Shown in pieces: positions 566 to 33,214 of a stretch of DNA of 64,000 nt. How positions within the stretch are numbered: the first letter of the stretch is position 1; each line of letters begins with the position of its first letter. The translations under genes were made by a program, and so were the position numbers. Under the pieces are notes generated by a model. It worked only from the letters and a program-made list of their open reading frames with translations. It was not told the DNA's origin and searched no databases. Origin of the DNA: a virus (taxonomy: Duplodnaviria > Caudoviricetes); IMG/VR virus record IMGVR_UViG_3300044259_000056, positions 10,261 through 74,260 of that record; one strand, 5' to 3'.

Positions 566-2348
566 ATGTCAGAAAGCATTATAATTGCCCCTCAACCGGG
601 GCCACAAGAACAATTTGTAAACCTAAGAGACAATATTCCATTAGTATTTTATGGGGGTGAAATAACCTGCTCGCCCCGTTGCACAGTAATGTGTAACTAG
701 TTCCTATCTAATTCGGTGAAGTCTTAACACATAACGGTGAAGATAATACCGAGCCAAGCAGCTAAACATCTTTTAAGATATTTAGTGGGCGTGTGTGGAG
801 GTCATTATGTAGTGGTCAAGTGACTGCGAAACGGTAGGCTCCTGTCAATCAGGATGAAGATATGACCCGACACTTCCAGAAATGGAAGAAAAGTTTAACG
901 AACTTTATAACAGAAAGGCAGCAGGCGGCGGAAAAAGTTACTCTATACTAATGGATGTTTTAAAATATGTAGATGATCCGTATTATTATGCAGTATTTTT
1001 TAGAAAGACAGTTAAACAAATAGAAAGGACGTTATGGCCTGAAGCAAAGGATATGTACGATCCATTTTTAAAAGAGCAATCTGGACCTAGAAAAGGTAAG
1101 TTTAAAGGAAAAGCCCAAATAAGGGAAAAAGATAAAGTTATTATCTTCCCGTCAGGAGCAAAGGTTGAGTTTGCCTACCTAGATACAGATAGAGATGCAA
1201 AAGAGAATTTTCAAGGTGCTCAAATAAACGCAGCATATTTTGATGAATTTGGACATTTCTCAGAGTTTGTGTTCAACTATATAAGAACTCGTATGAGGTC
1301 AAAACCAACAGCAAAATATTTACCTTATATTCGTTGTACATTAAACCCAGAACCAAACCATTTTGTTCTTAAATATTTAAGTAGATACATTGGAGAAGAT
1401 GGGCTTCCAATAAAAGAATACTCTGGTAGACCTGCATACTTCTTAAATGTTAAAGGTGAGATAATAACTGCGTGGAGTGAAGAAGAGTTATTAAAACTTC
1501 ACCCAGATAAAAAACCACGTATGTATACCTTTATTCCTTCTTCTTTGAGTGATAACAAAAAACTACTTGAAGTTAACCCTGAGTATGCAGATGATTTACT
1601 TGCAAATGACCCAGCAAATGCTGAATTACTTTTAAGGGGGAATTGGTTATATAAACCAGCAGCTAATGGTGTTTTTGAAAAATCAACTATAAAAGTTGTT
1701 GATAAAGTTCCTCTCGGAAGTAAGTATATTAGAGCATGGGATAAAGCATCCTCTAAACCTGTTAGTGAAGGTGGTGATAGCAAACAGAAAGACCCAGACT
1801 ATACAGCAAGTATCTTGTTTGCAAAAGATAAAGAAGGCTTTATTTATGTGATGGGGAATTATTATAGGGAACAAGACAATTCTCAAAGGTCTAGGTTTAG
1901 AGAAAGACCGGGAACAAGAGATACTTACATTGAACAGCAAGCATATCATGATGGGGATGATGTCACAATAATTCTACCATGTGACCCCGGACAGGCTGGT
2001 ATTGTAGAGCTACAGGAAAGTTCAAAGAAATTACAATCACTTGGTTTTACAGTTAAACCAGACCCATTGCCGGGTAACAAAAGTAAGAGAATAAGATTTG
2101 AACCTTTTTGCACAGCTTGTCATATTGGGAATGTCTTCTGGGTAAAATCTTCCTTTGATCCGAAAGTATGGGATTACTTAATAATGGAACTTGAAAACTT
2201 TGATGGTGATAAAAATAATGGATACCATGATGATTTTGTAGACTGTTTTTCAACAGCTTATGCATCTTGCTTAAAAGAGAAAGTACAAGAACCTGTTGCA
2301 TTCCATGCAATATCTGCACCTACATTAAAATACAAAGCAAGAATTTAA
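566..2348 (+). CDS. terL: Terminase large subunit, spliced; exons 566-658 and 918-2348 (~507 aa)
   Basis: Exon 1 MSESIIIAPQPGPQEQF...VFYGG joins AAGGGKS to rebuild the Walker A motif; Walker B YFDEF, TLNP motif and C-terminal nuclease motif HDDFVD present. Confidence 0.95.
659..917 (+). mobile_element. Group I intron (IA-type), ORF-less, 259 nt, inserted in the terL Walker A coding region
   Basis: Exon GGGGU pairs with IGS GCCCC giving a U-G pair at the splice site; CCUGCU pairs with exon 2 AGCAGG (P10); P3 CCUAUC/GGUAGG; P7 GGUCAU/AUGACC after GAAGAU; P9 CUUCCA-GAAA-UGGAAG; terminal G; removal restores the frame. Confidence 0.93.
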
Positions 2349-2355
2349 TGTCACT

Positions 2356-2384
2356 TTGACTTATTTCAACTTTAAGTGTAGAAT
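2356..2384 (+). promoter_or_regulatory. Sigma70-like promoter for the portal operon
   Basis: TTGACT-17 nt-TAGAAT. Confidence 0.7.
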
Positions 2385-2434
2385 AATCATAGGAACTTAA
2401 ATAAATTGTTCTTATAATTATAAAGTGAGGAAAT

Positions 2435-4970
2435 GTGACAGATGTTAAAACTAAGAGGACTTATAGAAAGAAATCTTCTTATTGGGAGGAGAGAAAATCT
2501 TCAGTAAGTCCTCAGTCTATAGAAAAAGCCAGTAACATGGATATGTCTACCTCAAGGTTAAGGTTGGGTGAAATTGGTTCTACTGCACTTTCAACAATTA
2601 AGTTGTACGCAGATTGGAGAAAACCTTATGATCTAAAATGGCCTGAGTGCATTAGAACCTATAATGAAATGGAGTATGATGACGATGTAGCAACAGCATT
2701 GGATGCAAGTTACACATTCGTAGAAAGGGCATTTGTTGAACCAGAAGTAGTTTATAATAAAGAATCAGAAGTCTCTATTGAGGCAGCAAGATTTTTAAAG
2801 TGGTGCCTTAATAACATGGACGACGGTATGACATTACGCTCTGCTGTTCGTTCAGCTATCACTTTTAAAAAGTATGGTTTTAGTGTCCTAGAGAAGTGTT
2901 ATACTCAAGTTACTTCTGGTGAATATGCTGGGATGTATAAGTTGCAGAAGTTAGCAACTAGGCCACAAGAAACACTGAATAAAGCAAACCCATATGTGTA
3001 TTCAGATGATGGCAGGACAGTTATTGGTATTATTCAGTCTATAAATGCAGTATCATCTACAAATGCAATAATCCCTGCATCTATTGTTGGTGATAGGTTT
3101 TTACCAAGGAAAAAATTACTTATTTTTGGTTATAACTCCACAGATTCAAATCCTTTCGGTGTTTCTCCTTTAGCTAGTATATATCAAGATTGGAAAGAAA
3201 AAGTTCTTATATCAGACTATGAAGTTGTTGGTGTTAGTAAGGACTTGGGTGGTAAACTAAGAGCTGCCTCCCTTTAATAAAACTTCCTTAACTGCTGGAA
3301 ACCCCTAAAGCTTGATTGTTCATTTCATCTATGTTACATTAAGAATGAAATAAAACAATCGAGATGCAACAATGGGCAATCAGCAGCGAAGTTCTGCTGA
3401 TCCTTGGATGAGGATCATATGAAGATAGAAATAGAAAGTAGTGGATATTATATAACAGATTCTGGAGAGGTTTATAGCAGACGTGGTAATAAACTATGTC
3501 CTGTTCTTAACCATAAAGGATATTTGACGGTTAAAATATTTTACGAAAAGGGTAAATATAAGACTAAGTTTGTTCATAGACTAGTTGCAGAAGCTTTTAT
3601 TGAAAATCCTAATAATTTGGAAACAGTCAACCATAAAAATGGTGTAAAAACAGATAATACTAAAGACAATTTAGAATGGATGAGTAGATTAGACAACACC
3701 AAACATGCAGCAAATGTATTACAGGCTCAAAAAGGTGACAAAGCAACTAATTTGACAATAAACTCTGATATAGCTAGGGAAATTTGTAAACTACTAGAGA
3801 AAGATATGCGTAATATTGATATATCTGTTCTATTAAATGTCCCCAAAAATATTGTTAGAGATATCAGAATAAGAAAAACTTGGACTCATTTATCCAAAGA
3901 ATATAAGTTTTCTATTTCAAAACATGCAAGAAATGTTAAAACTTCTAGCAGAAAATGTTCAACGACTATCGAAAGCATAGGTTAAATGAGAGATAAATAG
4001 ATTATCTTTTATTATAACTAAAGAAGCAAGTAGAGTACAGCCAAGTGGTAGGTTGCCATAGTGGAATGGCTATGGTTATAAAACCCTTTAAATGGAAACA
4101 GGAAGCATCTCTTTGAGATGAAGATATAGTCTGATCTGCATGGAAACATGCAGCAGCTTGAATAAAGCGGGGAGGGATTAACGAACCCTCCTGAACATTA
4201 TGATGCCTGTCCTTGGTGTTCCAAAAGATATCATAAATAAAGCAGCAGCAAATCCCGGTGGCGAAGAAGCTAAATCCTTGTATGTATTAGAACAAAATTT
4301 AGCTAATCTTCATGCAGGGGAACAAGCATATATTATGCTACCATCTGATCCATTTGATAATACACAAGTAAAAGAATATTCTATAGAATTTAAAGGAATT
4401 TCAGGTAGCGGTAAACAGTTTGATACTGGAAAACTTATAGAACGTAGAACTAAGGCTATTTATAATAGACTTGGTGCAGGATTCTTAATAACAGGGGATT
4501 CTGGGTCTGGTTCTTATGCATTAAGTGATAATAAACAAACTTTCCATAGTCATACTATTGAACGTGATATTGACATTACTCTAGAAGTCCTTAATAAAGA
4601 ACTAGTTCCACAGTTGCTAGCTTTGAATGGAATATATCTTGAGGATAAAGATATGCCAAAGATAAAAGCTGGAACTGTTGGTGATCCTGATGTAGAAGCT
4701 AATTCTAAGATGATTCAGCGTGTAGTTAGTGTTGGTGCTGTTCCAATGGTTCCAGAAGTTATTAATGAGTTTTTAGAAAAACTTGGATTAAGTTACAGGC
4801 TACCTGTTGATATTATCTCGGATGAGAAAGCTTATCAAGACTTTGTTAGTAAATATCTTCCTGCAAATGTCTCAAGGGCAGGCGATGGGATGAGTAAACC
4901 GGGGAATGGTACATCAAACTCTGTAGCGTCAACAGATAATTCATCTTTAAATTTGGATAATGCCTCTTGA
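2435..4970 (+). CDS. Portal protein, spliced; exons 2435-3253 and 4203-4970 (~528 aa)
   Basis: Position between terL and protease; the join gives VSKDLGG|MPVLGVP; portal-like motifs (NPFGVSPL, GSYALS). Confidence 0.9.
3280..3385 (+). repeat. 106-bp block, 101/106 identical to 15465-15570
   Basis: Direct comparison (portal intron 5' core vs tape-measure intron 2 5' core). Confidence 0.92.
3419..3985 (+). CDS. Intron-encoded HNH homing endonuclease (HNH_3 / I-HmuI-like)
   Basis: VHRLVAEAF..VNHKNGVKTDN..NLEW; SD GAGGA before ATG 3419; C-terminal HTH-like module. Confidence 0.9.
   Translation: MKIEIESSGYYITDSGEVYSRRGNKLCPVLNHKGYLTVKIFYEKGKYKTKFVHRLVAEAFIENPNNLETVNHKNGVKTDNTKDNLEWMSRLDNTKHAANVLQAQKGDKATNLTINSDIAREICKLLEKDMRNIDISVLLNVPKNIVRDIRIRKTWTHLSKEYKFSISKHARNVKTSSRKCSTTIESIG
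3958..4136 (+). repeat. 179-bp block identical to 15181-15359
   Basis: Direct base-by-base comparison (portal intron vs tape-measure intron 1). Confidence 0.95.
4121..4202 (+). repeat. 82-bp block identical to 16439-16520
   Basis: Direct comparison (portal intron 3' end vs tape-measure intron 2 3' end). Confidence 0.95.
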
Positions 4971-5127
4971 TAACTTTTGTTTTATTGTTTTTCATATTAA
5001 AATACTTTAATAAATGTTGTATTAAATAACTACAAATTTATGTTAACTGTTGACTTATATTAAATTTTATTTTAAAATAAGTAATAGGAACCCTGCTAAC
5101 ATAACAGCAGATTATATTGGAGGTCTT

Positions 5128-5583
5128 TTGTTTAACAAAGATAAACTCCTTTCTCTATTCAAAACCTTTCTTGATGAAAACATCTCTGACCAACCTACTG
5201 TTGAAATCATAAAACAATTTGATGAAGAAAAGATGGAGGCAGTTGAGGTATTATACTGCCCACCAGACCAAGCAGACCTTCATCAAGAGGCAATGACAGA
5301 AGATGAAATCGTTAAGATGGTTGATAATCTTAATGCAGCTATTAAGAAAGGTAGAGTTAAAGGAAATATTGCTCATGCTGTAAATACAGATAAGATTTAT
5401 CCTGTAGAAGCTTGGGTAAATAAAGTAGCTTGTGATATTGGTGGTAAAACCATTCCAGCAGGAATGCCACTAATTAAAATGAAGTTTACTGATAGACAGC
5501 TTTGGGAAGAAAGGAAATCAGGAAAATTAAAAGGTGTATCAATGGGTGCTCGTGGAGAAAGAGTTGAGGTAAAGAATGATTAA
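5128..5583 (+). CDS. Prohead maturation protease (XkdF-like)
   Basis: GGAGG then TTG at 5128; DLHQE, NIAH and GVSMGARG motifs; located after portal. Confidence 0.75.
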   Translation: MFNKDKLLSLFKTFLDENISDQPTVEIIKQFDEEKMEAVEVLYCPPDQADLHQEAMTEDEIVKMVDNLNAAIKKGRVKGNIAHAVNTDKIYPVEAWVNKVACDIGGKTIPAGMPLIKMKFTDRQLWEERKSGKLKGVSMGARGERVEVKND

Positions 5584-6868
5584 AAATTACCTTCAAAACG
5601 TATCCTTTGATTTTGAGGAAAATGAAGAGAGCCTTGGCCCACATATTGCATACACACTTGAATTTCAGGGTGGTGCAGCATCTGGATACAATGATCCAAT
5701 TCTCCTAAAATCAAAGAAAACTGTTATTACCAGTGAGGTGATAAAAGGTCTAAAAGAGGTAGGAATAGACACCTCTAGTTTGGAGAAATCAATGTTTCAG
5801 AGTGATCTGCGTGAACAACTACAAAGTGCTATCAGGGAAAAAGCATTTTGTGATGAATATGATTGGTGTTGGGTTTGTGATTTTAACGATGAAATAGTTG
5901 TATTCTGTAGTGATGATGGCTTATATAGTGTTGCTTATGTCATTGAGGATAATTCTGTTAAAGTTGATAATATAGCTAATCCTGTTGTCCGTTTAATTGA
6001 CTATGTTGCTGTTGATGGTGAAGTAAAAGTTAGTGAAGAAATGGAAGACAAGCTAGAACAACAAATGATGGATATGTTGAATAAAGCTAACTCCCAACCA
6101 GACCTAAAAAAATTCATTCTTAAAGCTGTCACTAAGAAAGAAGGGAATGAAAATCTTACTGCTGATAAATATGCATATACTCCAGACAAAGAAAAAGTTT
6201 CTACTTGGAAATTGCGTATTGATACTGCTGCAAACACCAGTGCTGCCGTTGCTGCATTAGGAAAAGGATTCCGTGGAAATAAAGTTAAAATCCCATCAGC
6301 AGATTTACCTGCTGTTAAAAAGAAAGTCTCTACAGCTTATAAGAAATTTTATCCAGACAAAGAATTGCCAGAGATATTGAAATCAAAAACAGAGGTTCCA
6401 GCCTCTGCAAGTAAACTAGAAAAAGGAGCCTCCGTGGATTTACAAGAACTAATGAAGAGTAATGAGTTTGCTGAACTCTTGAAAGCTGAAATTGCAAAAG
6501 CAACTGCAAACGAAGCCAAAGAAAAAGAAGAACTTCAAAAAGCTTTGAATACTGAAAAAGAACGTATTGCTGCACTGGAAGCTAAAGAAGTTGAGCGTGT
6601 TGAGAAATCACATCGTGACATTCTTAAATCTTTCTCATCTTTTATTGCCGAAGATAAAACTGAAGCACTTGTAAAAGCTTTCATGAAAGATGCAGAGACT
6701 GCTCTTGTGGTAATTGAAGTTTTAGAAAAAGCTAACTCTGTCGTTGAACAGGTTAAGAAAGAATTCGGTGCTGAGGTTGGAGTTAACGTTAAAGTTGAAG
6801 ACTCTGCTAGCCTACAAGAGAAAATCATTGCTAAAGCTAAAGCAATGAAAGAAGCCCAATCTAAATAA
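5576..6868 (+). CDS. Capsid scaffolding / head assembly protein
   Basis: Located between protease and capsid genes; acidic N-terminus and long Ala/Lys/Glu coiled-coil C-terminus. Confidence 0.7.
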   Translation: MIKNYLQNVSFDFEENEESLGPHIAYTLEFQGGAASGYNDPILLKSKKTVITSEVIKGLKEVGIDTSSLEKSMFQSDLREQLQSAIREKAFCDEYDWCWVCDFNDEIVVFCSDDGLYSVAYVIEDNSVKVDNIANPVVRLIDYVAVDGEVKVSEEMEDKLEQQMMDMLNKANSQPDLKKFILKAVTKKEGNENLTADKYAYTPDKEKVSTWKLRIDTAANTSAAVAALGKGFRGNKVKIPSADLPAVKKKVSTAYKKFYPDKELPEILKSKTEVPASASKLEKGASVDLQELMKSNEFAELLKAEIAKATANEAKEKEELQKALNTEKERIAALEAKEVERVEKSHRDILKSFSSFIAEDKTEALVKAFMKDAETALVVIEVLEKANSVVEQVKKEFGAEVGVNVKVEDSASLQEKIIAKAKAMKEAQSK

Positions 6869-6886
6869 TAAAAAGGGAAAATAAAA

Positions 6887-7267
6887 ATGGCAATTGCTAC
6901 ATACACTTCTTCTGATCGTTACACCGATCTTGTTCTGGGTCAGGTTGACGCAACTGACTTGGGTTATTCTTTTGAGACTGTAAACGTCACCAAAACAGCC
7001 ACCACTCGTATTGGTTCTTTGCTTGCAGGTGCTACTGAAATTGCAAACGCTGCTGCTGCAACGGCTAATGGTGTGATTGTATGGGTTGACAGTTATAATG
7101 GTCTGGATGATTTTGCAGTCGGCGCAACTGTTCCGTGTGTTGTTGCTAAACGTGCAGTGACTCTTAACCAGAATAAACTTGTATTTACCGATGGTGCAGT
7201 TAACGCAACTGCAATTACCGCTTTGAATGCTTTTGGCATCAAAGTTACTTCTAAAATTGTTAGCTAA
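6887..7267 (+). CDS. Head decoration protein
   Basis: 126 aa, Ala/Thr/Val-rich, immediately before the major capsid gene, highly-expressed codon style. Confidence 0.7.
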   Translation: MAIATYTSSDRYTDLVLGQVDATDLGYSFETVNVTKTATTRIGSLLAGATEIANAAAATANGVIVWVDSYNGLDDFAVGATVPCVVAKRAVTLNQNKLVFTDGAVNATAITALNAFGIKVTSKIVS

Positions 7268-7280
7268 TTGAGGGATTAAG

Positions 7281-8279
7281 ATGCCAGTTGCTTTTACTGA
7301 TAAACTATTGGACTTTACACCACTGTATGAGTTCATGACTACCCCTGTTCCTAAAACTGTCACTAATCTTGACATGTTTGAAAAGAACTATAATATGACT
7401 GATTTGGCCTCTGTTGGTCGTTTGTCACATGCAGTAGGTACTATTCCTGCACAAGCTCGTGGTGGCGAGCGTAATTTCATGATTTCTAATCCAGCTACCA
7501 TGAAAGCATGGCAGATTCCATTCTTCCCACTGGATAAAAATATCAAACCTACTGATGTTCAGAATTTCCTGAACATGATTAATGACCGAGATACCCCAGA
7601 AACTGCCCAAACTCTGGTGACTAAGTTTATGCAGCGTATGCGTAATGCTCATGCAACTACTAAGGAAAAGATTCGTACTTCTGCTATTAAGGGCACAAAC
7701 TTCCTAGGTGGCGGTGTAGGTGTTTCAGTCAACTATTATACTGAGTGGGGCTTGACTCAACAGACAGCTAACTTGGATTTTAGTTCTCCTACTGTAGACC
7801 CAGCAAGTGTTCTAGAAGCTAATGCTCGTGCATATATTATCGATAATAAAGGTGATGATTCTGACTTCACAGAAGTTGTGGCTCTTTGTGGACGTAAATA
7901 CTTCCAAGCACTGATCGATAACGCATATGTTCGCACTGCCTATTCTTATTATATGGATGGTGTTCAGCCTCTGCGTGATCGTGTTTCTGGTAATGTTGAT
8001 GCACGTTCTTTTGAATACAAAGGTATCCGTTATATAGAAGATATCTATGGTAATATTGAGACTAATAAAGCATATATCTTCCCTGTAGGTATTGATGGTA
8101 TGTTCCATGAGTTTTATGCTCCTGCTGATACTATTGCCGAAGCAAATACTGAAGCTAAGGAAGAATATTTCTGGCTTGACTTGGAACGTCGCACTGCATC
8201 TATTCAGTCTGAATTTGGGCTGTTGGCTGTGAACACACGTCCTGAGCTGGTTGTATCTTCTACTGGTACTAACCTGTAA
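7281..8279 (+). CDS. Major capsid protein (lambda gpE-like family)
   Basis: 332 aa; IPFFPLD, FEYKGIRYIE and AVNTRPELVV motifs; followed by a terminator. Confidence 0.88.
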   Translation: MPVAFTDKLLDFTPLYEFMTTPVPKTVTNLDMFEKNYNMTDLASVGRLSHAVGTIPAQARGGERNFMISNPATMKAWQIPFFPLDKNIKPTDVQNFLNMINDRDTPETAQTLVTKFMQRMRNAHATTKEKIRTSAIKGTNFLGGGVGVSVNYYTEWGLTQQTANLDFSSPTVDPASVLEANARAYIIDNKGDDSDFTEVVALCGRKYFQALIDNAYVRTAYSYYMDGVQPLRDRVSGNVDARSFEYKGIRYIEDIYGNIETNKAYIFPVGIDGMFHEFYAPADTIAEANTEAKEEYFWLDLERRTASIQSEFGLLAVNTRPELVVSSTGTNL

Positions 8280-8297
8280 GATTTAAGAGTAGATTAA

Positions 8298-8324
8298 GGG
8301 CTGGGCTTATTGCCCGGCCTTTTT
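8298..8324 (+). terminator. Rho-independent terminator after the capsid gene
   Basis: GGGCTGGGC-TTATT-GCCCGGCC followed by a T-run. Confidence 0.85.
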
Positions 8325-8343
8325 CATATGGAGAAAGCACACA

Positions 8344-13897: not shown

Positions 13898-13933
13898 ATG
13901 GTTAGGTATCAACAAATCTCTACGGAGGGTGTA

Positions 13934-16900
13934 TTGGCAATTAATTTTGATGCTGCCATTATTAAAAATAAAGTGGTATATACAACAGACCTCTCATCAC
14001 TTAAAAAAGTAATGGCGGATATTAGGAAGGTTCAACAGTCAGCATCTAAATCTGTTTTAGCTTCCTCAACAATAAAACAATCAAGACAACAAGCTGAACA
14101 GACAAAACGTTGGGCATCAGAAACAATGGATGCACATGTTAAAGCTATGAACGAAGTAAGAAAATCAAAGGCATCTCAATTTCAGAAGTCATCTCAAGAT
14201 TATTTCAATGACTTATTTGGCATAGGTAAGAAAACAAAATCTGCCAGAGAGTCTGGTTATGCTTTTTTAGAACAGTTTCAGGCACAAGATGCCGCAGCAA
14301 ATGAAATAAGGAAAAGGCAAAAAGAATCTTTGAGAAGACAGACAGCAGACCAGAAGAAAATAGATGAAGCTAATATTAAAGCAACAGAAGATAGACTAAG
14401 AAGAAAAGATGTAGCGAGTTCTAAGCAATCTTTTTTTGGTTTTGAATTAGGAAAAACAAGACTCGGTGTTGATGATATGCGAGCCTATACAACACAAATG
14501 AGAAACTTATCTCAGGAGTATGTATCAGGGAGTATGTCTGTCAGACAATATAATGAATCAACACGACAATTACTTTCTACTGCAAGACAACAGAGTAAAG
14601 AGTCATTAACACTTAAAGAAAGGTTAATGAGTATTCGTGGAGAAATGGTTCTCTTTGGTGTAACTGCTGGATTTGTTATTAAAGATGTTGTAGATACAGG
14701 AAAACAATTTCAACAATTAAATTTATCTTTTGATACAGCATTTGGTAAAGATAAAGGCGAGGCAATGGATTTTGTTCGCTCAGAGGCTGATAGATTAGGT
14801 ATGAGTGTCCTTGGTGTTAGTAAGAACTATGCTCGGTTAGCTTATGGTGCTAAGTTAATGGGCATGTCACAATCAGATGTTCAGATGGGATTCTCTGGGA
14901 TATCTGAAGCAGCAACTGCTTGGGGTCTATCAAATGAGCAAGTTCAAGGGACATTTAAAGCATTTACAGATATGATCTCAAAAGGCACAGTCCAGTTAGA
15001 GGAGCTTAATGTTAGGTTCCTGAAACTTCTTTAATTGTCGGGGAAATCTTGAAAGGTATTGACTACTCTCTCTACATAGTGATATAGTAGAAAAACTCTT
15101 GGTAATGCAAGAGCTATAGTAAAAACGTCAATAATAGAGATAATCCGCAGGTAAGGTTCTTTATTTCATAAAGAACAAACTTCAACGACTATCGAAAGCA
15201 TAGGTTAAATGAGAGATAAATAGATTATCTTTTATTATAACTAAAGAAGCAAGTAGAGTACAGCCAAGTGGTAGGTTGCCATAGTGGAATGGCTATGGTT
15301 ATAAAACCCTTTAAATGGAAACAGGAAGCATCTCTTTGAGATGAAGATATAGTCTGATCCTCATATGAGAATATGAGCAGACACAAGGAAGTGTCTGTTT
15401 GTGTTTAACGAACACAAAAAACATCGGTGAAAACAACAACTCGGTTATACTATTAGCTGAGTATAAACTTCCTTAACTGCTGGAAACCCCTAAAGCTTGA
15501 TTGTTTATTTTCTATATGTTATATTAAGAATGAAATAAAACAATCGAGATGCAACAATGGGCAATCAGCAACTAAGCATCTCTCCAGAAAAGAAAGTAAG
15601 GAGAAAATATGGAATATGAAAATCTAAGCAAAAACTATAAAGTGACATCTTGTGGTTTAGTCTTTTCTTTAAGAAGAAATAAATATCTGAAGCAGTCAAT
15701 ATTTGGTGGGTATAATATAGTAAATATTGGCAAGAAGAACTATTTTGTTCATAGACTAGTTGCTATAACTTATATACCAAATCCAAGTAATCTTCCTTGT
15801 GTTAATCATAAAGATGGAAATAAGCTAAATAACCATGTAGATAACCTTGAGTGGTGCACAAGTGGATACAATCAATGTCATGCATATTTAACTGGACTAA
15901 AAAGGTTACCAAAAGGTGAAATGAATGGAAGAAGCGTTTTAACAGATTCTGAAGTTCTAAGTGTCTACGATGATCTTATGTCTGGGGCAAGAGTTAAAGA
16001 TATTTCAGAGATCTATGGTGTAGGAAAAAGCACTATAATGTCTATTAAGAAAAAAGAGTCATGGCAGCACTTATTAAAAGATAAACCAGATATAAAAATA
16101 AAGAAAAAGACACAAACCTTATCTGAAAATACTGTTATATGGATTTGTAAACAGTTGTCAGAAAATAAGACAGTTAAATGGATTTTTGATAACTGTCATA
16201 AGAATGTTACAATTAATCAAATACAAGATATAAAGAGAAGGCATTGTTTTTGTAAGATAAGTAAAGATTTCATATGGTGATGAAAGCTCAACGACTATCG
16301 AAAGCATAACTTAGGTCTTAGCCTGAGTGAGTAAGCAAGTAGAGTAGCGCCAAGTGGTAGGTGATTAAAGTGGAATGACTTTAATTATAAAACCCTTTAA
16401 AGCAAAATGGGAAGAGGTGTATAACAGATTATGCACTTAAGATATAGTCTGATCTGCATGGAAACATGCAGCAGCTTGAATAAAGCGGGGAGGGATTAAC
16501 GAACCCTCCTGAACATTATGGATCGTATGCCGGATGCAATGGCTGTGTTTGCTAAAGCATTAGACCCAGAGTCTTATGCAAAAAATCCACAGAAAGCCAT
16601 TGAAAAAATGCAAGAGACTATTAAGAAAGGTAATCTCAAGTCTCTTGAAACATTACCTAAAGTATTTAAAGTATTCCATGAAATATATGGCCCACAAGCT
16701 GAAAAAGCTATGTATGGTGTCACTCAACAACAGAACAGATTCAATAATACATTAAATGATTTCAAAAATATAATCTTTCAGTCTGGTTTAGCAAATGCAA
16801 CAGTTAGGTTATTTGGTGCACTAAACAATTTCTTGAAAGGTTCTAAGCCCTTAGCTGCATTTTTAGGTGGTATTGCACAAGGTTTTGCAGATTTACTTTA

Positions 16901-17606
16901 CTATGTAGAACTTGGTGAAGCATATTTCCTAGATTTTGCTGTTGCAATGGGTGTTTTGAATTATGAGACAGGAAAATGGAATAAAGATGTCCTTAATGCA
17001 TTTGCTGAGGTTGGTGAAGCTGCTGGCATCCTTTTTGGTTTGAAATTAATTAAATGGTTAATGGGAACTGTTACAAGTTTTAATAAATTAGGTTCAACTG
17101 TTGGTAAGTTAGGGGCTAAGTTTGGTATAGCAAGTGGTTTTGCTGTGTCACTTTTAGGGGCTATTGAAGGTATTGCTAAATTTGCAGGAAAAACTTTGCT
17201 TATTGGAATTGCATTAGATTTCTTTTCTAAAATTGGTGATCTTGAAAAAGAGGCTCAAGATAAGAATAAAAATCTTGGTGAGCTACTTTATGAGAAATCA
17301 CAACAAAAAGAGAAAGAACGTATTGCAAGAGGTGGCGCGGATGTAAGTAATTGGTGGGAAAATGTAAAAAGCTTTTTTACCCCGAATAGTGGTACTCTAA
17401 CATCTCCATCCCCTTGGGAGAACACTATGTCCTCTAATTTTAATCCCTTCCTAATGGGCATGGCAGGTGTCTCTGCACCAAAAGAAGCTTATCAACCTCC
17501 TGTTGAAATTAATCTTAACTTTAAAGGGGAAGGTCTTAAAGACTTCTGGGATGTTCAGATGAGTAATCAAGCCTCGAGTCTATATGACTTCCAGTTAAAT
17601 AAATAG
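13934..17606 (+). CDS. Tape measure protein, three exons: 13934-15006, 15430-15445, 16521-17606 (~724 aa)
   Basis: Spliced product reads KGTVQLEEL-KQQLG-DRMPDAM, the conserved tape-measure motif; TTG start after GGAGG (track start 13898 is in the same frame). Confidence 0.92.
15007..15429 (+). mobile_element. Group I intron 1 of the tape-measure gene, ORF-less, 423 nt
   Basis: P1: exon GAGCU with IGS GGUUC (U-G at the site); core AAUUGUCGGGGAA...GAUAAUCCGCAG; P7 AACGACUAUC / AAGAUAUAGUC; P9.0 CUGAU/AUCGG then UG end. Confidence 0.92.
15430..15445 (+). other. 16-nt micro-exon of the tape-measure gene (A AAA CAA CAA CTC GGT)
   Basis: Completes the Leu codon CT|A and encodes KQQLG; its last 7 nt pair with the intron 2 IGS. 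Confidence 0.9.
15446..16520 (+). mobile_element. Group I intron 2 of the tape-measure gene, carrying an HNH ORF
   Basis: P1: ACUCGGU with GCUGAGU; IA2-like core; P7 strands at ~16290 and ~16440; ends AUUAUG before GAT CGT ATG. Confidence 0.93.
15609..16280 (+). CDS. Intron-encoded HNH homing endonuclease with two C-terminal HTH-like modules
   Basis: FVHRLVAITYIPNP..VNHKDGNKLNNHVDNLEW; SD AAGGAG. Confidence 0.92.
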   Translation: MEYENLSKNYKVTSCGLVFSLRRNKYLKQSIFGGYNIVNIGKKNYFVHRLVAITYIPNPSNLPCVNHKDGNKLNNHVDNLEWCTSGYNQCHAYLTGLKRLPKGEMNGRSVLTDSEVLSVYDDLMSGARVKDISEIYGVGKSTIMSIKKKESWQHLLKDKPDIKIKKKTQTLSENTVIWICKQLSENKTVKWIFDNCHKNVTINQIQDIKRRHCFCKISKDFIW

Positions 17607-26320: not shown

Positions 26321-26322
26321 AG

Positions 26323-26350
26323 AAAGCCCCTAATCTTAGGGGCTTTTATT
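26323..26350. terminator. Bidirectional terminator between convergent late and replication modules
   Basis: AAAGCCCCT-AATCTT-AGGGGCTTT with A/T tracts on both sides. Confidence 0.88.
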
Positions 26351-26357
26351 TTAACAA

Positions 26358-27110
26358 TCAGAACGGGATGTCATCATCCCAATCTCCTCTAGGTTCATCT
26401 GGTAGAGAAGAGACTTCATTTTCTTTTTTAGGAGTATCGTCTTTCTTAATTTCCCCTTTTACAGCTTTAATACTGAAAGGGACAACATTATCTAGGTAAT
26501 TATTAACAAAGTCTTCCACTTCTTGAAGGTCTTTCACATACATTGCCGCTACAGCCAGAGATTGCCCCACTGTTTGACCAATTTCATACTCTGTAAGTTC
26601 TTGGTGTTTATTTGTAAAGTTCTCCTTAACTTTTTTAGCAAGAGCTGCAAAAAACACCATTGTACCTTCAATTGTTTTTTGATCAGGCAGTTTCCCCTTA
26701 AAGAAATTAAATGCGCATGTTCGCACATTTCCTGCTTCTACCCCTGTTGTATCTTTCTTCCCACCAGATTTTTGACCCTGTTGTTGAACACTCTGATTAG
26801 CTGTTCTATTTGGCTGAGGGTGAGACTCCTGTTCTGGTGATTTCTCAATAACTGTTAAATCACTTTTCTTGGCATTTTTATATTTACCATCATCCTCATA
26901 TTTCAAGAAAATACTATCCCCCACTTTCACATCATAATACCCTTTACCTTCCTTAATAGTAAATGTTTCTCGTTTACCTCCACCAAATCCTACCCATGAA
27001 TCATCATCTAATTGAAGACTCAGACGAAAAAGATTCTGAAATTTGTCTGGTTCTGGCAATGCTTTTGCAAAGACACGTTTTACCTTACCTTGAAATGTTT
27101 TAATAGTCAT
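26358..27110 (-). CDS. Single-stranded DNA-binding protein
   Basis: OB-fold-like N-terminus and acidic C-terminal tail WDDDIPF; GGAG SD before ATG 27110. Confidence 0.7.
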   Translation of the reverse strand: MTIKTFQGKVKRVFAKALPEPDKFQNLFRLSLQLDDDSWVGFGGGKRETFTIKEGKGYYDVKVGDSIFLKYEDDGKYKNAKKSDLTVIEKSPEQESHPQPNRTANQSVQQQGQKSGGKKDTTGVEAGNVRTCAFNFFKGKLPDQKTIEGTMVFFAALAKKVKENFTNKHQELTEYEIGQTVGQSLAVAAMYVKDLQEVEDFVNNYLDNVVPFSIKAVKGEIKKDDTPKKENEVSSLPDEPRGDWDDDIPF

Positions 27111-27126
27111 ATTTATACTCTCCTGT

Positions 27127-28752
27127 TTAGTGAATCTCTGAATATTTTTTACCAAATTGTACGTCTACATCTAATTTACGTCTTAAATTGAATTCTTTAT
27201 TTACATCTTCTACTGCCCCTTTTATCAATGATTTAAATTCAGATTTAAATTTTTCTGTATCTTTAAAACTAAACATTACTTCATCATGCATCTGCAATTG
27301 TATTTTATTTACCCCGAATTTCTCTTTTTGTCTCCGTAGGATGTGTTTCAACCACATATCAAAGAAATAACTTCCTGAACCCTGACAGAGTGTTGAGAAC
27401 ACATCTTTTTTAGCTCTGATTGCATACATAAAACCATTGATAGGGTTAACTAACCAGAGTTTGTGTAAATTATTATAACCTTCTTCAGAAGGGAATTCAA
27501 CTAAAAATTGTTCTTCTGCAATTGCCTGAACAGACCAGTTAAGTTTCCAATATGATTCATGTAATAACTTACCTGTCGTTAAATCTACCCCAGCAGTCTG
27601 AGAGATTTTAGGTGCCCCGGCCCCGTACACAGCACTGTAGTTGCAATTACCAGTAATTGTTAGAACATTCCCTTGTCTAATAAGGAAATTGCCATTTTCT
27701 GTTATAAGGCAAAAAACATCTGTATCTCTAGTATATTGTTTTCTTAGACGCTGACAAGTAATATGTGGCCTACCCTGTGCACTAATTTGCATATTACTTT
27801 TACTCTTATAGCTAACAGTAGTGTTTTTCCCTGTTAAGTGTAAAGCCAATTGAATGGCATCATAAACCCTACCAAGATTTTGATAAATAATTAAAGATTT
27901 TTTACTCTTACCTTTTTCACTAGTCAATCCATCTGCTTTCCAAAAAGCATCAATAAAAGAGTGAAGAGATTCTGTATTTAGACTACAAATCCATTGGGTA
28001 TAATCAATCTCATGTTTACTCTTTAAAGGAAGTCCAACAGATTTAATAAAATTTCTTGCGTCTACTGAAGGTATTGTTAAAGAAAGAACACCATTGCTTG
28101 CCGTTATTTTATCTTCACGATAAGTTAGGTTTAGTTTTTCTAATAATTCTTTTATTTCATTTAAATATTTTTTTGGTGACTGAGCTATTGACATTCTAAC
28201 ATACTGCCGTTGTCCCATTTTGCCTTGAGAAGTTTTCTTAGTCAACTTTGAAACATGCAGATACCCATCAGATAAAATCCAACCTAATAAACGTGCTTGA
28301 TCTGGTGAAACAGAACTATCACCACCAATATACTCTCCTGTTGTAATAATATTCATATCAGAATTAACTTTATCAGTTTCTTCATAAAAAGTTTTTACCC
28401 AAGGATTAGACTTAGTTCTTACACGTTTATCCACCAACCATTTATGATTACCAGTTGACTCTACACACCATGAACGGTGTGAAAGTGTCTTTACAGGTTG
28501 ACATTCATAAAAAACTTTATCTAAGACTTTACACCAAACTTGTTTACGTTCCTTATTCAAGGACATAACATATTCACCAGACTTGATCTCATTAAAACTC
28601 TTCCAGCCATCTTGGGTTAAGACTTCAGTGTTATCAACAGGCAAACAAGATTTACCTAATTTTCTTGCTGAAGATATTCTTTCAATTATCTTCTTTTGTT
28701 CTTCTGGTGGCAATGCTTTCATTTCTTCAAAACTTAAACCTCTTTTATTCAT
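27127..28752 (-). CDS. DNA polymerase family A, C-terminal part (motifs B and C), intein-containing
   Basis: RKLGKS|intein|CNYSAVYGAG; QMHDEV; start ATG 28752 or GTG 28758. Confidence 0.92.
   Translation of the reverse strand: MNKRGLSFEEMKALPPEEQKKIIERISSARKLGKSCLPVDNTEVLTQDGWKSFNEIKSGEYVMSLNKERKQVWCKVLDKVFYECQPVKTLSHRSWCVESTGNHKWLVDKRVRTKSNPWVKTFYEETDKVNSDMNIITTGEYIGGDSSVSPDQARLLGWILSDGYLHVSKLTKKTSQGKMGQRQYVRMSIAQSPKKYLNEIKELLEKLNLTYREDKITASNGVLSLTIPSVDARNFIKSVGLPLKSKHEIDYTQWICSLNTESLHSFIDAFWKADGLTSEKGKSKKSLIIYQNLGRVYDAIQLALHLTGKNTTVSYKSKSNMQISAQGRPHITCQRLRKQYTRDTDVFCLITENGNFLIRQGNVLTITGNCNYSAVYGAGAPKISQTAGVDLTTGKLLHESYWKLNWSVQAIAEEQFLVEFPSEEGYNNLHKLWLVNPINGFMYAIRAKKDVFSTLCQGSGSYFFDMWLKHILRRQKEKFGVNKIQLQMHDEVMFSFKDTEKFKSEFKSLIKGAVEDVNKEFNLRRKLDVDVQFGKKYSEIH
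27646..28647 (-). mobile_element. Intein (334 aa) with LAGLIDADG-type endonuclease in polymerase motif B
   Basis: Starts CLPVDNTEVLT, ends ITGN, Cys at +1; LLGWILSDG and FWKADG blocks. Confidence 0.93.
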
Positions 28753-28786
28753 ATGCACTCTTCTCTATAAATAGACCAAGAAACTG

Positions 28787-30451
28787 TTAATGGTTCTTCT
28801 TATACCATTTATAAAACATCTCTTCATCCTCTGTAATAAATTCAGCAGTAACAGCCATTTTAGTGTGAGGATCATAGTCATCAGCCATCATGGTTTCAAC
28901 ATATTTTGGATCATGTGCTAACATAAAATGGTGTTTAGTCCTGTCTTCAAGTGAGGACATGTCAGAACCACATAATGTATAACCCTTTTCTGAAATAAAT
29001 GACCCACGAATTTCTTCCCCACCTATTTTATCAACACCAACAAGGTTTACAACATTTCGATGTTTTACCCTTAAGGTGTTGGTTAACCCACCAATAGAAG
29101 CTTTAATTCTACCTTTATCATCCATATCCCTTAGTAAGCCTTTAATCACACCTAGGCGATGTTTATAAAGGTTTAAGTTAGAATAGAGGGCAATCTCTGG
29201 AACATCTTCAGCAAGCTTTTCTACACTCTGACAGAGGACTTTGCCGTCTTCTCCACTTATAGTAACTTGTGGGACTTGTCTGGCAATTGGCCTTTCAGGT
29301 TTTGTTCCCCTTCTGCACCCAAGTGCCTTCCATCTTTTCATGTCATCTTGCCAAGCTTGTTCAGCCTCTTTATCTTTTACCTCTTTAAAAGTCTCAGGAA
29401 TCCAACCATGTGAATATAAGAAATTTTTTATTTGTTCTGGTGAGTTTGCATTTGGGTCTTCATAGTTAGTCAGAACTAAAAACTCTTCAATTTCGTCAAC
29501 CTCACGACAGCGCATTTCACCATTAATCTCAACTAGAGGTTCACTCTTTCCTAGTAAAACTCTGGCTGTTCCAACATCATCTTTTGTTGATGACTGATAT
29601 TGTTGTTTAAGTAGCTCCCAAGTTTTACCAGCTTCTGTATACTCACCATTTTGTTTAAAATACTTTTTAGGTTTAGTCTTCTTAGAGTATTTTGGTATTT
29701 TTGGCATAACAGATTCTAATTTATCTTTTAATTCTTTAACTTTATCAGCAAAAAATTTCTCACTGTTATCTAAATGTTCTTTATCCAAAAGGATACCAAT
29801 ATCTTCCTGAATTCTATATGTATCTAACTTAAACATTAAGAAAGATAAAAATCTTTCAATATGTTGGTCTACAGACAAACCTTTTAAAGAGTCTATATAG
29901 AGTTCTTCATTTGGGCTAATTCTTTTTCCACCAACTAATCCAGCATCTATTGCTTCCTTAGATTGGGTGTACATTAAGGTAAGTCTATTCTTGAAGTCTT
30001 CCCAAAGAGCTTTATTTATCTTTACATCTTCTTGACAACGATGTTTATATTCTTCATAGGAAAGATTTTTCCAGTCCTCCACCTTTGGTTTTTCAATACC
30101 ATAATCTTCATGAAAAGAGTCTAAACCATGTTGACTTCTTGTTGTATTAAGGTACCAACTTAAAGCTAATGTATCTATCACCATTAAGTTTGACAAATTC
30201 ATAGAAGTTATTTTTTCTAAGGCCGGAACATCAAACAGAATAAAATTATGACCAACAATAGGGATTTCATTCTCTATGTGCCAACTTAACATATTTTTTA
30301 TTCTTTCAATATCCGCACCATCAATAGAGGAAGGGGAAGATTTCCCTTCCATTTGAAAACTCACAACATGGCATTTTGTCAGTTCATTTAGGAGGCCGTC
30401 TGTTTCAATATCTGAGACAGTCCCCTTCCTCCAATTTTTTATTAACTTCAT
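28787..30451 (-). CDS. DNA polymerase family A, N-terminal part (3'-5' exonuclease through motif A)
   Basis: DIETDG, GHNFILFD, CQEDV exonuclease motifs; TNTLRVKH; GSDMSSLEDR motif A; ends YDPH...KKNH then stop. Confidence 0.92.
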   Translation of the reverse strand: MKLIKNWRKGTVSDIETDGLLNELTKCHVVSFQMEGKSSPSSIDGADIERIKNMLSWHIENEIPIVGHNFILFDVPALEKITSMNLSNLMVIDTLALSWYLNTTRSQHGLDSFHEDYGIEKPKVEDWKNLSYEEYKHRCQEDVKINKALWEDFKNRLTLMYTQSKEAIDAGLVGGKRISPNEELYIDSLKGLSVDQHIERFLSFLMFKLDTYRIQEDIGILLDKEHLDNSEKFFADKVKELKDKLESVMPKIPKYSKKTKPKKYFKQNGEYTEAGKTWELLKQQYQSSTKDDVGTARVLLGKSEPLVEINGEMRCREVDEIEEFLVLTNYEDPNANSPEQIKNFLYSHGWIPETFKEVKDKEAEQAWQDDMKRWKALGCRRGTKPERPIARQVPQVTISGEDGKVLCQSVEKLAEDVPEIALYSNLNLYKHRLGVIKGLLRDMDDKGRIKASIGGLTNTLRVKHRNVVNLVGVDKIGGEEIRGSFISEKGYTLCGSDMSSLEDRTKHHFMLAHDPKYVETMMADDYDPHTKMAVTAEFITEDEEMFYKWYKKNH

Positions 30452-30481
30452 TTGTCCTCCTTAAAGGTGCAACCACAGTAT

Positions 30482-33214
30482 TTAATTAGGCTGTGGTTTT
30501 CCTGAAAAGTAATCATCTAAATCATGACATTTAGCTTTATCAAACTCATAATACCACTTACCCGCAGGGCCAGTCTTACCACCACGACATTTTGGCAAAT
30601 CAACTTCAGTTGTGTTCTTCTCAATCAGGTCATCAGAAAGTTTATCCCGGTTAAGAACAATGTTGTAAGCAGCAGATTGAACAAAACTCCCTGTGCCTAG
30701 GGTATCATACTCAGTAACTTTACGGGGCTTACCTTCAGCGTTCTGAGGTGGTTTACGGGTATGTTGTACATTTACTGTTGTCACACCATTTTTAGCCATA
30801 TTTCTTTGAAAATTCATATGGTCTTCCGCATGTTCTTCACTGCTGCCACGCAATAAATCAGATAATACATCAATAACAAAGAGGCGGCTATCATGTTTTC
30901 TAAACAACATTTCCAACTCTTTTTCTAGATCTTTGATATTACCAGATCGTTCATCAAGAATATAAAATCTTGGTTGCCCATTCTCTTTATAACATAAACT
31001 CTGTTTAATTCTTTGTCCTTCTTCTGTCTTGAGGAAATCTTTAATTTCTTCACTAGACATTTTCCATAGCATATTCATTTCAAGATGGATAGATAACATC
31101 TCTAACATATATTGAGCAGCAGTTGCTTCAAGGCTAACAATAGTAGGAGTAACAGGACTGTTAAATATCCAATGATAAACCATTCTATTCACATGTGTAC
31201 TTTTGCCACAAGAAGTGTCAGCAATAATATTTAGGATTCTGCCTTGGATAATTCCACCACCCATCATATCTTGCATTTTATGCATATAAGCCGGTAATGT
31301 GATACGGGGTTTAGAGAGTTCTTCCTCAATCTCATCAAAACCATCAGCAGCACTTTTCACACCTTCTGGAACATAAGGCTTTGCTGCCCAGAAATCATTT
31401 ATAAATTCTTGCTCTTTATGCAATAATTTCTTTGTGTCATTATCATAGATATATGCATTTGGGTCTTTATAGCGCATTTTCATGACAAAAACTTTTCCTT
31501 TCGGAAGAACTTCATAAATCTTTTCAGCAGCCTCACGTCCTGCTGCATCACTATCCATTGCAACTACAATTTTTTTAAATTGATTAATAAAATCATAGTT
31601 ATTTTGAAGCTGTTTGTATACAGAAGTCTCCCCTGTTGTCCCACTCACAACAGCAATAGGGTCATAGTTTTTGTTTCTCTGTGCATCAGAAAGCATTTGA
31701 TATGCTGCTAGTTGATCTGAGTTACCACAAACTACAACCTTATTATTACGACGAACTAGTAGTTGTCCGTTGGGAACGGTAGCGCAATAAACAAACCCTG
31801 AATAATTTTCTGTTGTTATCTCTACACTCTGAAATGAGGCTGTTTTCTTTGCAAAGGAGATTTTTACTGCGTACCATTCACCTAGGTCATTATTTCTTTT
31901 TCTAACAGAAGCATGGTATCCACTGAGAACAGCAATAGATTGCACTAGGTCTGCTTCATTTTTAAGTTTAGAGTTGAACTCAATACTGTTGCGATCTTTT
32001 ACTAAATTTCCATCCCAATGAACAATCTCTTTCAAAAAGAGGTCTCTTTGCCTAGAATTAAAATCTTTTAACCAAGAATCTGGCAATCCTTTTTTAGTAC
32101 ACCAAGGTTCTAAAGTTACATTGAAAGTATGATAAGAACCTTTAATCCAGTGTTGGTGGTCTTCCTTACTGTATTCAGTGTAATTCATTTTTAAATCATC
32201 TAAAATATTTTTTAGACGTTTAATTTTTCTTTCTTTTTTGAAAGAAAAATGTGCAACTGCTTTACCACTCACCTTATAATCTACTTTAGCATCAGCAGAG
32301 AGTGCAATAATAAACTTAATCTGGTCATCTGTTAAATTAGAGCCTGCAAAAGTATCCTCAAGTTCTGTTGTTTTCCTGAATAGATTAGCTTTAGAAGTTC
32401 CTTCTCCCGCATTGAAGTAAAAATCTTTATTAGTTTTTGGTCTTACTCCTACCATCTTATGATTTGGTGTTACTAACAAAGAGATTTGATTACTCTTAAA
32501 ACTAACCAGATCACCAGAATATTCTTTTTTAATAAGACGGCTAGGTTTCACCCAAGAGGATTTACCCTCTTTCACTTGAAGCACTAAGGTTTTATTATCT
32601 AACTCTGAAAATAATTTAAAACCTTCTTGCGTCATCACCTCTGTTTGATCATCATAACATTCCCCACCAACTAGTAACAAAGTGTTGGTGAAAGTTTTAA
32701 ATCGAAATTGACCAAATAAATCACAATCTTTGCCAGTCTCTCCAATTGGGCCGGGGCTTTTAAAATTCTTTGGATGTGTTCGCTGCTTATAGCCTGAAAT
32801 CTCATAATTCTTAGTTGTTGGATAAAGAGTCCCACAGACTTCTCCGTCTGTTTCATTATACTTATATCTTACACCAAAAAACTTGGAAATTTCTTGTTTA
32901 ATCCCACGATAACCTTTTGGGTCAAGTCCCGTTTGTTCCTTTAATTTCTTATGCACCTCTTCATTAAATTCTGAACCCACAATTTCCTCTTCTTCAAAAT
33001 CTTTATTGTTATCAATAATCCATTGTTCGTCAGGATAGGTATAACCACAGGAGAAACAATATGCTCCTTTATGCAAACCATCTGAATCTAAACCATAGAC
33101 CATGAGATTATCATTGTTTTGGTCAAGACCTTTTGACTGGCATTTAGGGCAACCAATATGCCCTTCTACTGATAGGTCTACCATAGTCCCAAAAAGATTC
33201 TTTGTCTTACCCAA
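30482..33214 (-). CDS. Primase-helicase (T7 gp4-like), intein-containing
   Basis: CPKC/CFSC zinc finger; Toprim MDSDAAG; helicase ADTSCGKST, VIDVLS, GSFVQSA. Confidence 0.92.
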   Translation of the reverse strand: MGKTKNLFGTMVDLSVEGHIGCPKCQSKGLDQNNDNLMVYGLDSDGLHKGAYCFSCGYTYPDEQWIIDNNKDFEEEEIVGSEFNEEVHKKLKEQTGLDPKGYRGIKQEISKFFGVRYKYNETDGEVCGTLYPTTKNYEISGYKQRTHPKNFKSPGPIGETGKDCDLFGQFRFKTFTNTLLLVGGECYDDQTEVMTQEGFKLFSELDNKTLVLQVKEGKSSWVKPSRLIKKEYSGDLVSFKSNQISLLVTPNHKMVGVRPKTNKDFYFNAGEGTSKANLFRKTTELEDTFAGSNLTDDQIKFIIALSADAKVDYKVSGKAVAHFSFKKERKIKRLKNILDDLKMNYTEYSKEDHQHWIKGSYHTFNVTLEPWCTKKGLPDSWLKDFNSRQRDLFLKEIVHWDGNLVKDRNSIEFNSKLKNEADLVQSIAVLSGYHASVRKRNNDLGEWYAVKISFAKKTASFQSVEITTENYSGFVYCATVPNGQLLVRRNNKVVVCGNSDQLAAYQMLSDAQRNKNYDPIAVVSGTTGETSVYKQLQNNYDFINQFKKIVVAMDSDAAGREAAEKIYEVLPKGKVFVMKMRYKDPNAYIYDNDTKKLLHKEQEFINDFWAAKPYVPEGVKSAADGFDEIEEELSKPRITLPAYMHKMQDMMGGGIIQGRILNIIADTSCGKSTHVNRMVYHWIFNSPVTPTIVSLEATAAQYMLEMLSIHLEMNMLWKMSSEEIKDFLKTEEGQRIKQSLCYKENGQPRFYILDERSGNIKDLEKELEMLFRKHDSRLFVIDVLSDLLRGSSEEHAEDHMNFQRNMAKNGVTTVNVQHTRKPPQNAEGKPRKVTEYDTLGTGSFVQSAAYNIVLNRDKLSDDLIEKNTTEVDLPKCRGGKTGPAGKWYYEFDKAKCHDLDDYFSGKPQPN
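31721..32659 (-). mobile_element. Intein (313 aa) with degenerate LAGLIDADG-type endonuclease in the Toprim domain
   Basis: LVGGE|CYDDQTEV ... VVCGN|SDQLAAYQ; EIVHWDG block. Confidence 0.92.

Follow-up and report, generated by a model that had tools for sequence, protein, structure and literature searches.

A 64,000-nucleotide (nt) stretch of viral DNA, hereafter called the window, corresponds to bases 10261-74260 of a 74,260-bp IMG/VR viral contig (IMGVR_UViG_3300044259_000056), which is of metagenomic origin and has an estimated completeness of ~50%. Its plus strand encodes a structural module of the myovirus type and its minus strand a replication module. Five essential genes of these modules are interrupted by six elements, i.e., by four group I introns and two inteins. 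The first-pass annotation of this DNA had placed introns in the large terminase gene terL, in the portal gene and in the gene of the tape measure protein (TMP; two introns), and inteins in the DNA polymerase (PolA) and in the primase-helicase. All six were recovered at these genes by the Rfam group I intron model RF00028, by joining of the exons and by comparison with Klebsiella phage vB_KpM_FBKp34 (FBKp34; Stephanstirmvirinae). Altogether, ~4.6 kb of 32.6 kb are intron or intein, and in addition the polymerase gene is split into two open reading frames (ORFs). The features are listed in the order of their coordinates, with FBKp34 and Vibrio phage ICP1 as the main references.

566-658, plus strand: terL exon 1 (31 amino acids (aa), ending in ...FYGG; ATG with AGGAG upstream; 52% identity to ORF129, the terL exon 1 of ICP1)
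659-917, plus strand: terL group I intron (no ORF; splits the Walker A motif; RF00028 38.2 bits)
918-2348, plus strand: terL exon 2 (begins with AAGGGKS; Terminase_6N and Terminase_6C; 66% identical to ICP1 terL)
2435-3253, plus strand: portal exon 1 (ends in ...KDLGG; 58% identical to FBKp34 portal residues 5-270)
3254-4202, plus strand: portal group I intron (RF00028 pieces 3293-3439 and 3908-4153; U3253.G; G4202)
3404-3985, plus strand: HNH homing endonuclease gene of the portal intron (Pfam HNH_3; phrog_59, E = 5e-41; likely start ATG 3419)
4203-4970, plus strand: portal exon 2 (begins with MPVLGVP; 57% identical to FBKp34 portal residues 272-526)
13898-15006, plus strand: TMP exon 1 (ends in ...VQLEE + CU; Pfam TMP_3 positions 2-112; P1 U15006.G in the RF00028 alignment)
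15007-15429, plus strand: TMP group I intron 1 (no ORF; RF00028 60.9 bits; 3' extension with two hairpins; terminal G15429)
15430-15445, plus strand: TMP micro-exon (16 nt; encodes L-KQQLG together with the CU of exon 1; joining in frame matches Pseudomonas phage Ppu-503)
15446-16520, plus strand: TMP group I intron 2 (RF00028 34.2 bits for the 3' part; U15445.G pair; terminal G16520)
15609-16280, plus strand: I-HmuI-like HNH gene of TMP intron 2 (Pfam HNH_3; PDB 1U3E, E = 6.7e-10; HKDGNK..NN..NL motif kept)
16521-17606, plus strand: TMP exon 3 (begins with DRMPDAM; 26% identical to ICP1 ORF79, the last TMP exon there; colinear with Ppu-503)
27127-28752, minus strand: PolA C-terminal ORF (motifs B and C; carries the intein; DNA_pol_A and LAGLIDADG_3; 70% identical to FBKp34 polymerase residues 565-738)
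27646-28647, minus strand: PolA motif-B intein (334 aa, LAGLIDADG type; an insertion compared to FBKp34; LAGLIDADG_3 E = 3.4e-7)
28753-28786, minus strand: gap between the PolA ORFs (34 nt; stop, frame change and restart)
28787-30451, minus strand: PolA N-terminal ORF (exonuclease domain to motif A; 74% identical to FBKp34 polymerase residues 1-548)
30482-33214, minus strand: primase-helicase gene (910 aa precursor; Toprim_2 and DnaB_C; 72-85% identical to the FBKp34 primase/helicase)
31721-32659, minus strand: Toprim-site intein (313 aa, LAGLIDADG type; inserted after the Toprim Glu)

At terL, the portal gene and the TMP gene, joining of the exons yields an intact conserved frame compared to uninterrupted homologues, and all four introns end in a G and have, in P1, a U.G pair at the 5' splice site. 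For terL, joining in silico rebuilds the Walker A motif (YGG/AAGGGKS, the slash marking the junction here and below; YGGAAGSGKS in FBKp34), with U658 pairing with a G of the guide sequence and G917 as the terminal residue; a narrow search with RF00028 gave an E-value of 1.9e-8. The intron can be aligned with the interval between ORF129 and ORF128 of ICP1, to which it is homologous in sequence; it interrupts the same Walker A position and, like its ICP1 counterpart, contains no ORF. For ICP1 it was shown by RNA-seq and reverse transcription PCR (RT-PCR) that the terL transcript is spliced (Barth et al., 2023, PMC10448857). A T5orf172 nuclease is encoded beside terL exon 1 in ICP1, whereas a search for GIY-YIG, T5orf172 and classical HNH genes across the whole 74-kb contig found none. 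A search with a 17-nt core pattern retrieved, besides ICP1, six distinct terL genes from IMG/VR (at seven loci, L073 and L074 being identical), all of them interrupted at the identical P-loop position. The alignment of eight terL introns gives a group I-like consensus fold with 54 pairs, 36 of which show compensatory changes, and P7 covaries (GGUCAU/AUGACC to GAUCAU/AUGAUC). Covariation was computed for the terL intron family; the other three introns share the canonical P7 strand GAAGAUAUAGUC.

The portal intron is recognized by RF00028 in two halves flanking the HNH ORF (39.3 and 22.6 bits). Joining of its exons (KDLGG/MPVLGVP) restores the arrangement found in FBKp34 (KDLGGTPVLKVP), and the gene is uninterrupted both in FBKp34 and in a complete 153-kb IMG/VR relative (G001). 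Other metagenomic phages encode N-terminal portal fragments of 270-292 aa, and three metagenomic contigs are occupied at this site: L062 shows the identical exon-HNH-exon layout, L061 carries an ORF-less intron at the same site, which reaches 80.7 bits with RF00028, and L060 contains the portal-site intron as well as a second intron further on. In the latter relative (L060:2301-8503), terL is interrupted by an HNH gene at another position, and both portal introns contain HNH genes.

The tape measure gene is interrupted twice, and only the 16-nt micro-exon separates the two introns. The junctions VQLEEL-KQQLG-DRMPDA correspond to VSMEELRQQLGERLYGA in Ppu-503, and the three exons joined in silico (...SKGTVQLEELKQQLGDRMPDAMAVF) are colinear with the uninterrupted TMP of this phage (...SKGTVSMEELRQQLGERLYGAF). 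The gene is likewise interrupted here in Vibrio phage 193E37-1 and in IMG/VR contig L037. In ICP1 the same two sites are interrupted, i.e., EEL/K-QLG and QLG/(D/E)xMP, with a micro-exon (KGQLG) in between and an HNH_3 gene in one of the introns; the ICP1 TMP introns score 77.9 and 38.9 bits with RF00028, and RNA-seq and RT-PCR experiments confirmed the TMP transcript of four exons (PMC10448857). However, ICP1 has a third TMP intron, before EEL, which is absent in the window phage, and the position of the HNH gene differs: in ICP1 it resides in the intron at the EEL/K-QLG site, which corresponds to intron 1 of the window, whereas in the window it resides in the intron after QLG. FBKp34 and G001 were rejected as references for the TMP gene. 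Their similarity is confined to TMP residues 12-247, the C-terminal TMP_3 domain is of another type, and an "empty TMP site" in these phages is uninformative.

Two of the four introns, in terL and TMP intron 1, contain no nuclease gene. The ORFs of the other two score 29.7 and 26.3 bits with Pfam HNH_3, above the cut-off of 24.8, both match phrog_59 and both are located upstream of the P7 strand of their own intron. They match I-HmuI, the HNH nicking endonuclease of the DNA polymerase intron of Bacillus phage SPO1 (PDB 1U3E), or its family, with the catalytic His and the Asn motif conserved. The similarity to I-HmuI amounts to ~30% identity and covers the N-terminal half only, whereas the C-terminal DNA-binding parts and the target genes differ. 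Together with the LAGLIDADG domains of both inteins, this gives the four nuclease genes that the first-pass annotation had counted, two I-HmuI-like HNH and two LAGLIDADG, with intact catalytic residues.

Both intein insertions are absent from FBKp34 and from many IMG/VR homologues. In the primase-helicase the junctions read LLLVGGE/C...VVVCGN/SDQLAAYQ, compared to LLIVGGEHDQLAAYQ in FBKp34 (longer stretch ...VGGEHDQLAAYQ), and in PolA they read RKLGKS/CLPVD...TITGN/CNYSAVYG, compared to RKLGKSTNYSAVYG. When the six elements are removed in silico one by one, the motif of uninterrupted homologues reappears each time. The earlier statement that the terL intron, both TMP introns and both inteins sit in conserved motifs holds. 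The splicing residues of the Toprim intein are C1, the block B TPNH, the ...GN end and the +1 Ser; those of the PolA intein are C1, the block B TGNH, the ...GN end and the +1 Cys. In an alignment of 40 sequences of the Toprim intein family, which comprises 9,517 members at E ≤ 0.001, C1, H67, D216, G312 and N313 are invariant and T64 and D123 nearly so. The LAGLIDADG helices of the Toprim intein are ...ALSADAK and ...VHWDGN, with D123 and D216 as the catalytic acidic residues, and those of the PolA intein are ...ILSDGY and ...WKADGL. Sequence-only PDB searches with the inteins returned chance matches only. However, an AlphaFold model of the Toprim intein (predicted local distance difference test score, pLDDT, of 96) has as its best PDB folds the inteins TliVMA, PI-SceI and PI-PfuI, which contain homing endonucleases (Foldseek probability 1.00, E down to 6.6e-16), and its middle domain matches I-DmoI. 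The order Hint-N, LAGLIDADG, Hint-C is common to the model and these folds, and both window inteins have the C1, the His of block B and the Asn at the end. The window inteins differ from TliVMA, PI-SceI and PI-PfuI in sequence (11-15% identity), in their shorter length (313-334 aa), in a penultimate Gly and in their hosts, i.e., a phage primase-helicase and PolA. They align with each other over the full length (22% identical, E = 6e-8) and are distant paralogues.

The Toprim site is empty in 18/18 IMG/VR relatives found. Among metagenomic primase-helicases it is occupied by a homologous intein in at least 15 cases (74% identity in two). A metagenomic relative (L017) carries an intein at the same PolA motif-B site with 46% identity, and the other relatives are empty there. 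Further insertions were seen beside these sites: the primase-helicase of one relative (L022:8995-10001) carries a ~1 kb insertion elsewhere, at residue 174 of its C-terminal part, another relative (L021:7707-8654) has an intein in another gene that is 25% identical to the Toprim intein, and in the closest intein-bearing relative (L035:12765-15356) PolA has 863 aa instead of 738 aa (~125 aa extra).

Taken over the sites compared, the relatives give a patchy picture of occupancy, in which not all close relatives carry the same elements, contrary to what the first-pass annotation had named as part of its refutation. In FBKp34 the terL, portal, primase-helicase and PolA sites are all empty; in G001 the terL and portal sites are empty. 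ICP1, which shares the terL and TMP sites, has uninterrupted portal, PolA and primase-helicase genes. Absence of the terL, portal, primase-helicase and PolA elements in the nearest relatives and presence in more distant phages is the pattern expected of elements that are, or until recently were, mobile. The density of elements in the window is comparable to that of ICP1, which carries four introns, an NrdA intein and many free-standing nucleases (PMC10448857). Every element is ordinary in kind and has relatives at the same site, and no new mechanism becomes apparent from them.

The introns of the portal and TMP genes are also related to each other. Positions 3958-4141 of the portal intron are 99% identical to 15181-15364 of TMP intron 1, positions 3280-3391 are 94% identical to 15465-15576 of TMP intron 2, and the 82 nt at 4121-4202 are 100% identical to 16439-16520 of TMP intron 2. 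By these matches the three introns are paralogues between which blocks have been exchanged, the portal intron being a mosaic of the two TMP introns. Exact copies of a 33-nt piece of the shared intron core were recovered from 19 IMG/VR contigs. They lie in genes for capsid, TMP and probable terminase proteins and in PolA (regions of motifs A and B); in L041 and L043 the core lies within PolA genes. Given this variety of host genes, the intron family has no bias towards late genes. As a separate observation, the mosaic portal intron points to recombination between intron copies inside the genome. Domain shuffling between introns of phage T4 was reportedly described by Bryk and Belfort in 1990. 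The resemblance lies in the exchange of near-identical blocks between group I introns of one genome, which in the window is known as a sequence pattern only.

The first-pass annotation had missed that PolA is split. The two ORFs lie in different frames, with the break between motifs A and B, and together they are colinear with the single FBKp34 ORF. The first ORF ends with ...FYKWYKKNH-stop and the second restarts 34 nt later with MNKRGLSFEEMKALPPEEQ... The FYKWYKKNH-stop tail is kept in many homologues of ~536 aa, and the tail and the restart peptide (M..EEMKALPPE..) are conserved in many split homologues with ~50-57% identity, so that the break is not due to a single-base error. The PolA halves are separated by an HNH_3-AP2 gene of ~160 codons in two relatives (L055, L056) and by a 188-codon ORF with only a faint AP2 match in a third (L057); a fourth (L058) has, like the window, no gene at this position. 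The presence of an HNH_3-AP2 gene in some of the relatives indicates that the break in PolA is the scar of the insertion of a free-standing homing endonuclease, i.e., a case of "genes in pieces". Moreover, the occurrence of junction peptides of a distant clade in an otherwise FBKp34-like polymerase suggests co-conversion in an old homing event. A similar case is nrdA of Aeromonas phage Aeh1, which is split by the free-standing homing endonuclease gene mobE according to the work cited as ref. 8 in PMC10448857. In both cases an essential enzyme gene is broken into two ORFs where a free-standing HNH-family gene inserted; for PolA, this arrangement is intact in L055 and L056. The window differs in that the nuclease gene is lost and the split and conserved junction peptides remain, in that the gene is PolA, and in that the C-terminal piece carries an intein as well.

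The setting of these elements is a genome that, at the protein level, is a mosaic. A megablast search with 19.5 kb against 50,697 phage records for near relatives at the DNA level found only short HNH matches, and IMG/VR scans with the single proteins portal exon 2 and TMP exon 3 returned nothing; the relatives came from whole-record searches and the protein database. FBKp34 is closest for PolA (74%), primase-helicase (72-85%) and portal (58%), whereas for terL identity is 66% to ICP1 and only 35% to FBKp34. ICP1 PolA and primase-helicase gave zero tblastn matches in the window, and FBKp34 served as the reference for the replication genes instead. Two observations on the arrangement may be added. 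terL with its intron (566-2348) is ICP1-like and the adjoining portal gene (2435-4970) FBKp34-like, which indicates a module boundary between the two genes. The tape measure protein (13898-17606) is chimeric, residues 12-247 being FBKp34-like (36%); its TMP_3 domain and the remainder resemble ICP1 and other Vibrio and Pseudomonas phage types.

In our view, five essential genes of this lytic-type myovirus very probably contain six independent self-splicing selfish elements and a scar left by a seventh insertion. This interpretation builds on the presence and boundaries of the elements, their family membership, their intact catalytic motifs and their patchy distribution. The four group I introns would be removed from the late mRNAs by RNA-catalyzed splicing, giving the terL, portal and tape measure proteins. 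The I-HmuI-like HNH endonucleases of the two large introns would, by analogy with I-HmuI, introduce a nick or a cut into the allele of a co-infecting relative that lacks the intron, and repair of this allele would copy the intron in (homing). TMP intron 1, only 16 nt away from intron 2, would be co-converted with it, and the terL intron would be an orphan that spreads only with flanking recombination. The LAGLIDADG inteins would be translated inside the primase-helicase and PolA and then splice out of the protein, and their nuclease domains would home likewise. PolA would be expressed as two polypeptides, after a free-standing HNH-AP2 nuclease gene once split it and was later lost. The idea that homing endonucleases can exclude co-infecting relatives is established, and PMC10448857 cites Goodrich-Blair and Shub (1996) for it. 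The nuclease "arsenal" proposed in the first-pass annotation would correspond to the accepted view of such nucleases and is not new.

Several points weigh against this interpretation. The phage is known from a metagenomic contig that is about half (~50%) complete and was read from sequence alone, and splicing, nuclease activity, homing and an effect on competing phages are predictions on this basis; the experiments on the homologous ICP1 introns showed splicing in vivo only (PMC10448857). Of the four introns, three remain below the Rfam gathering score of 50 bits for RF00028 in the window (terL 38.2, portal 39.3 + 22.6, TMP intron 2 34.2), and TMP intron 1 alone reaches it. The E-values of the sub-threshold introns range from 1e-5 to 1e-8, and the low scores are explained by ORF insertions and divergence. 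Both inteins have Gly instead of the usual His as penultimate residue, which is probably tolerated because it is conserved throughout the family. Furthermore, the first LAGLIDADG motif of the Toprim intein is atypical (SADAK), and the Pfam LAGLIDADG match on this intein is below threshold (E = 0.16).

Among the alternatives, it is conceivable, though on balance unlikely, that the elements are fixed relics, which still splice because they must, with inactive nucleases, no homing and no competitive arsenal. Such a state would fit two introns that have lost or never had a nuclease gene, the loss of the HNH-AP2 gene from the PolA split and the ICP1 terL intron, which is fixed in all isolates (PMC10448857). 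However, all four nuclease ORFs are full length with their catalytic residues kept, the empty sites in the nearest relatives point to recent gain or loss, and the 100% and 99% identical blocks point to recent exchange between the intron copies.

A further reading makes the load more than passive parasitism. The 16-nt exon is both the 3' exon of TMP intron 1 and the P1 substrate of intron 2, which would force the order of splicing; together with module exchange between the portal and TMP introns (concerted evolution) and with the inteins, this might form a timing or condition sensor for the supply of late proteins and replisome. We regard such a sensor as quite improbable; if it existed, late-protein and replisome supply could depend on splicing efficiency. 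Slightly less probable still is the regulatory gate proposed in the first-pass annotation, in which virion assembly would be controlled at the level of RNA folding and replication at that of protein splicing. The layout of this single genome, with introns in late genes and inteins in replication genes, is all that speaks for it. This layout is indeed found here, but as a rule it does not stand and is, with six cases, coincidental: other phages have the same intron core in PolA (as in L041 and L043), capsid, TMP and probable terminase genes, and inteins are recorded in prophage terminases and portals (PMC4760082). Close relatives live without the terL, portal, primase-helicase and PolA elements, and a patchy presence fits parasitism and not conserved regulation.

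It is highly improbable that the mosaic portal intron is an artefact of metagenome assembly across repeats. The repeats of 184 nt (99%) and 82 nt (100%) lie 11-12 kb apart and short-read assemblers can cross over at such places, but the exons flanking every intron are the correct partners and in frame, the portal exon 1 and N-terminal polymerase proteins of the window are recorded on two contigs, the longer one of 76.5 kb, and relatives have introns at the same portal site. Ribosomal bypassing at the PolA break, as in T4 gene 60, would yield a single polypeptide. It is suggested by a CAT codon on either side of the 34-nt gap, one preceding the stop (take-off) and the other 37 nt further on (landing), but is hardly credible, as the identical split is conserved in many homologues, the inserted ORFs of L055 and L056 (~160 codons) and L057 (188 codons) are too long to hop, the gap of L058 lacks matching codons and has a strong AAGGAG ahead of the ATG, and the C-terminal half opens with a conserved Met-led segment.

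With six selfish splicing elements and a scar as its probable content, the contig illustrates, as a compact natural case, how densely such elements can be packed in essential phage genes. Three of its features bear on phage evolution, i.e., the ICP1-like terL with its intron beside Klebsiella-phage-like genes, the PolA junction peptides of a distant split clade and the intron blocks common to several genes. According to the published view, nuclease-associated elements mark the boundaries at which phages exchange genetic material, and all three features agree with it. Moreover, gene callers mis-annotate all of these genes, with a false start for terL, split calls for the portal and TMP genes and an over-long primase-helicase. 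As an example, ATG 882 (MEEKFNELYNRK), the start that a gene caller would pick for terL, falls within the intron (882-917), and the real start is ATG 566.

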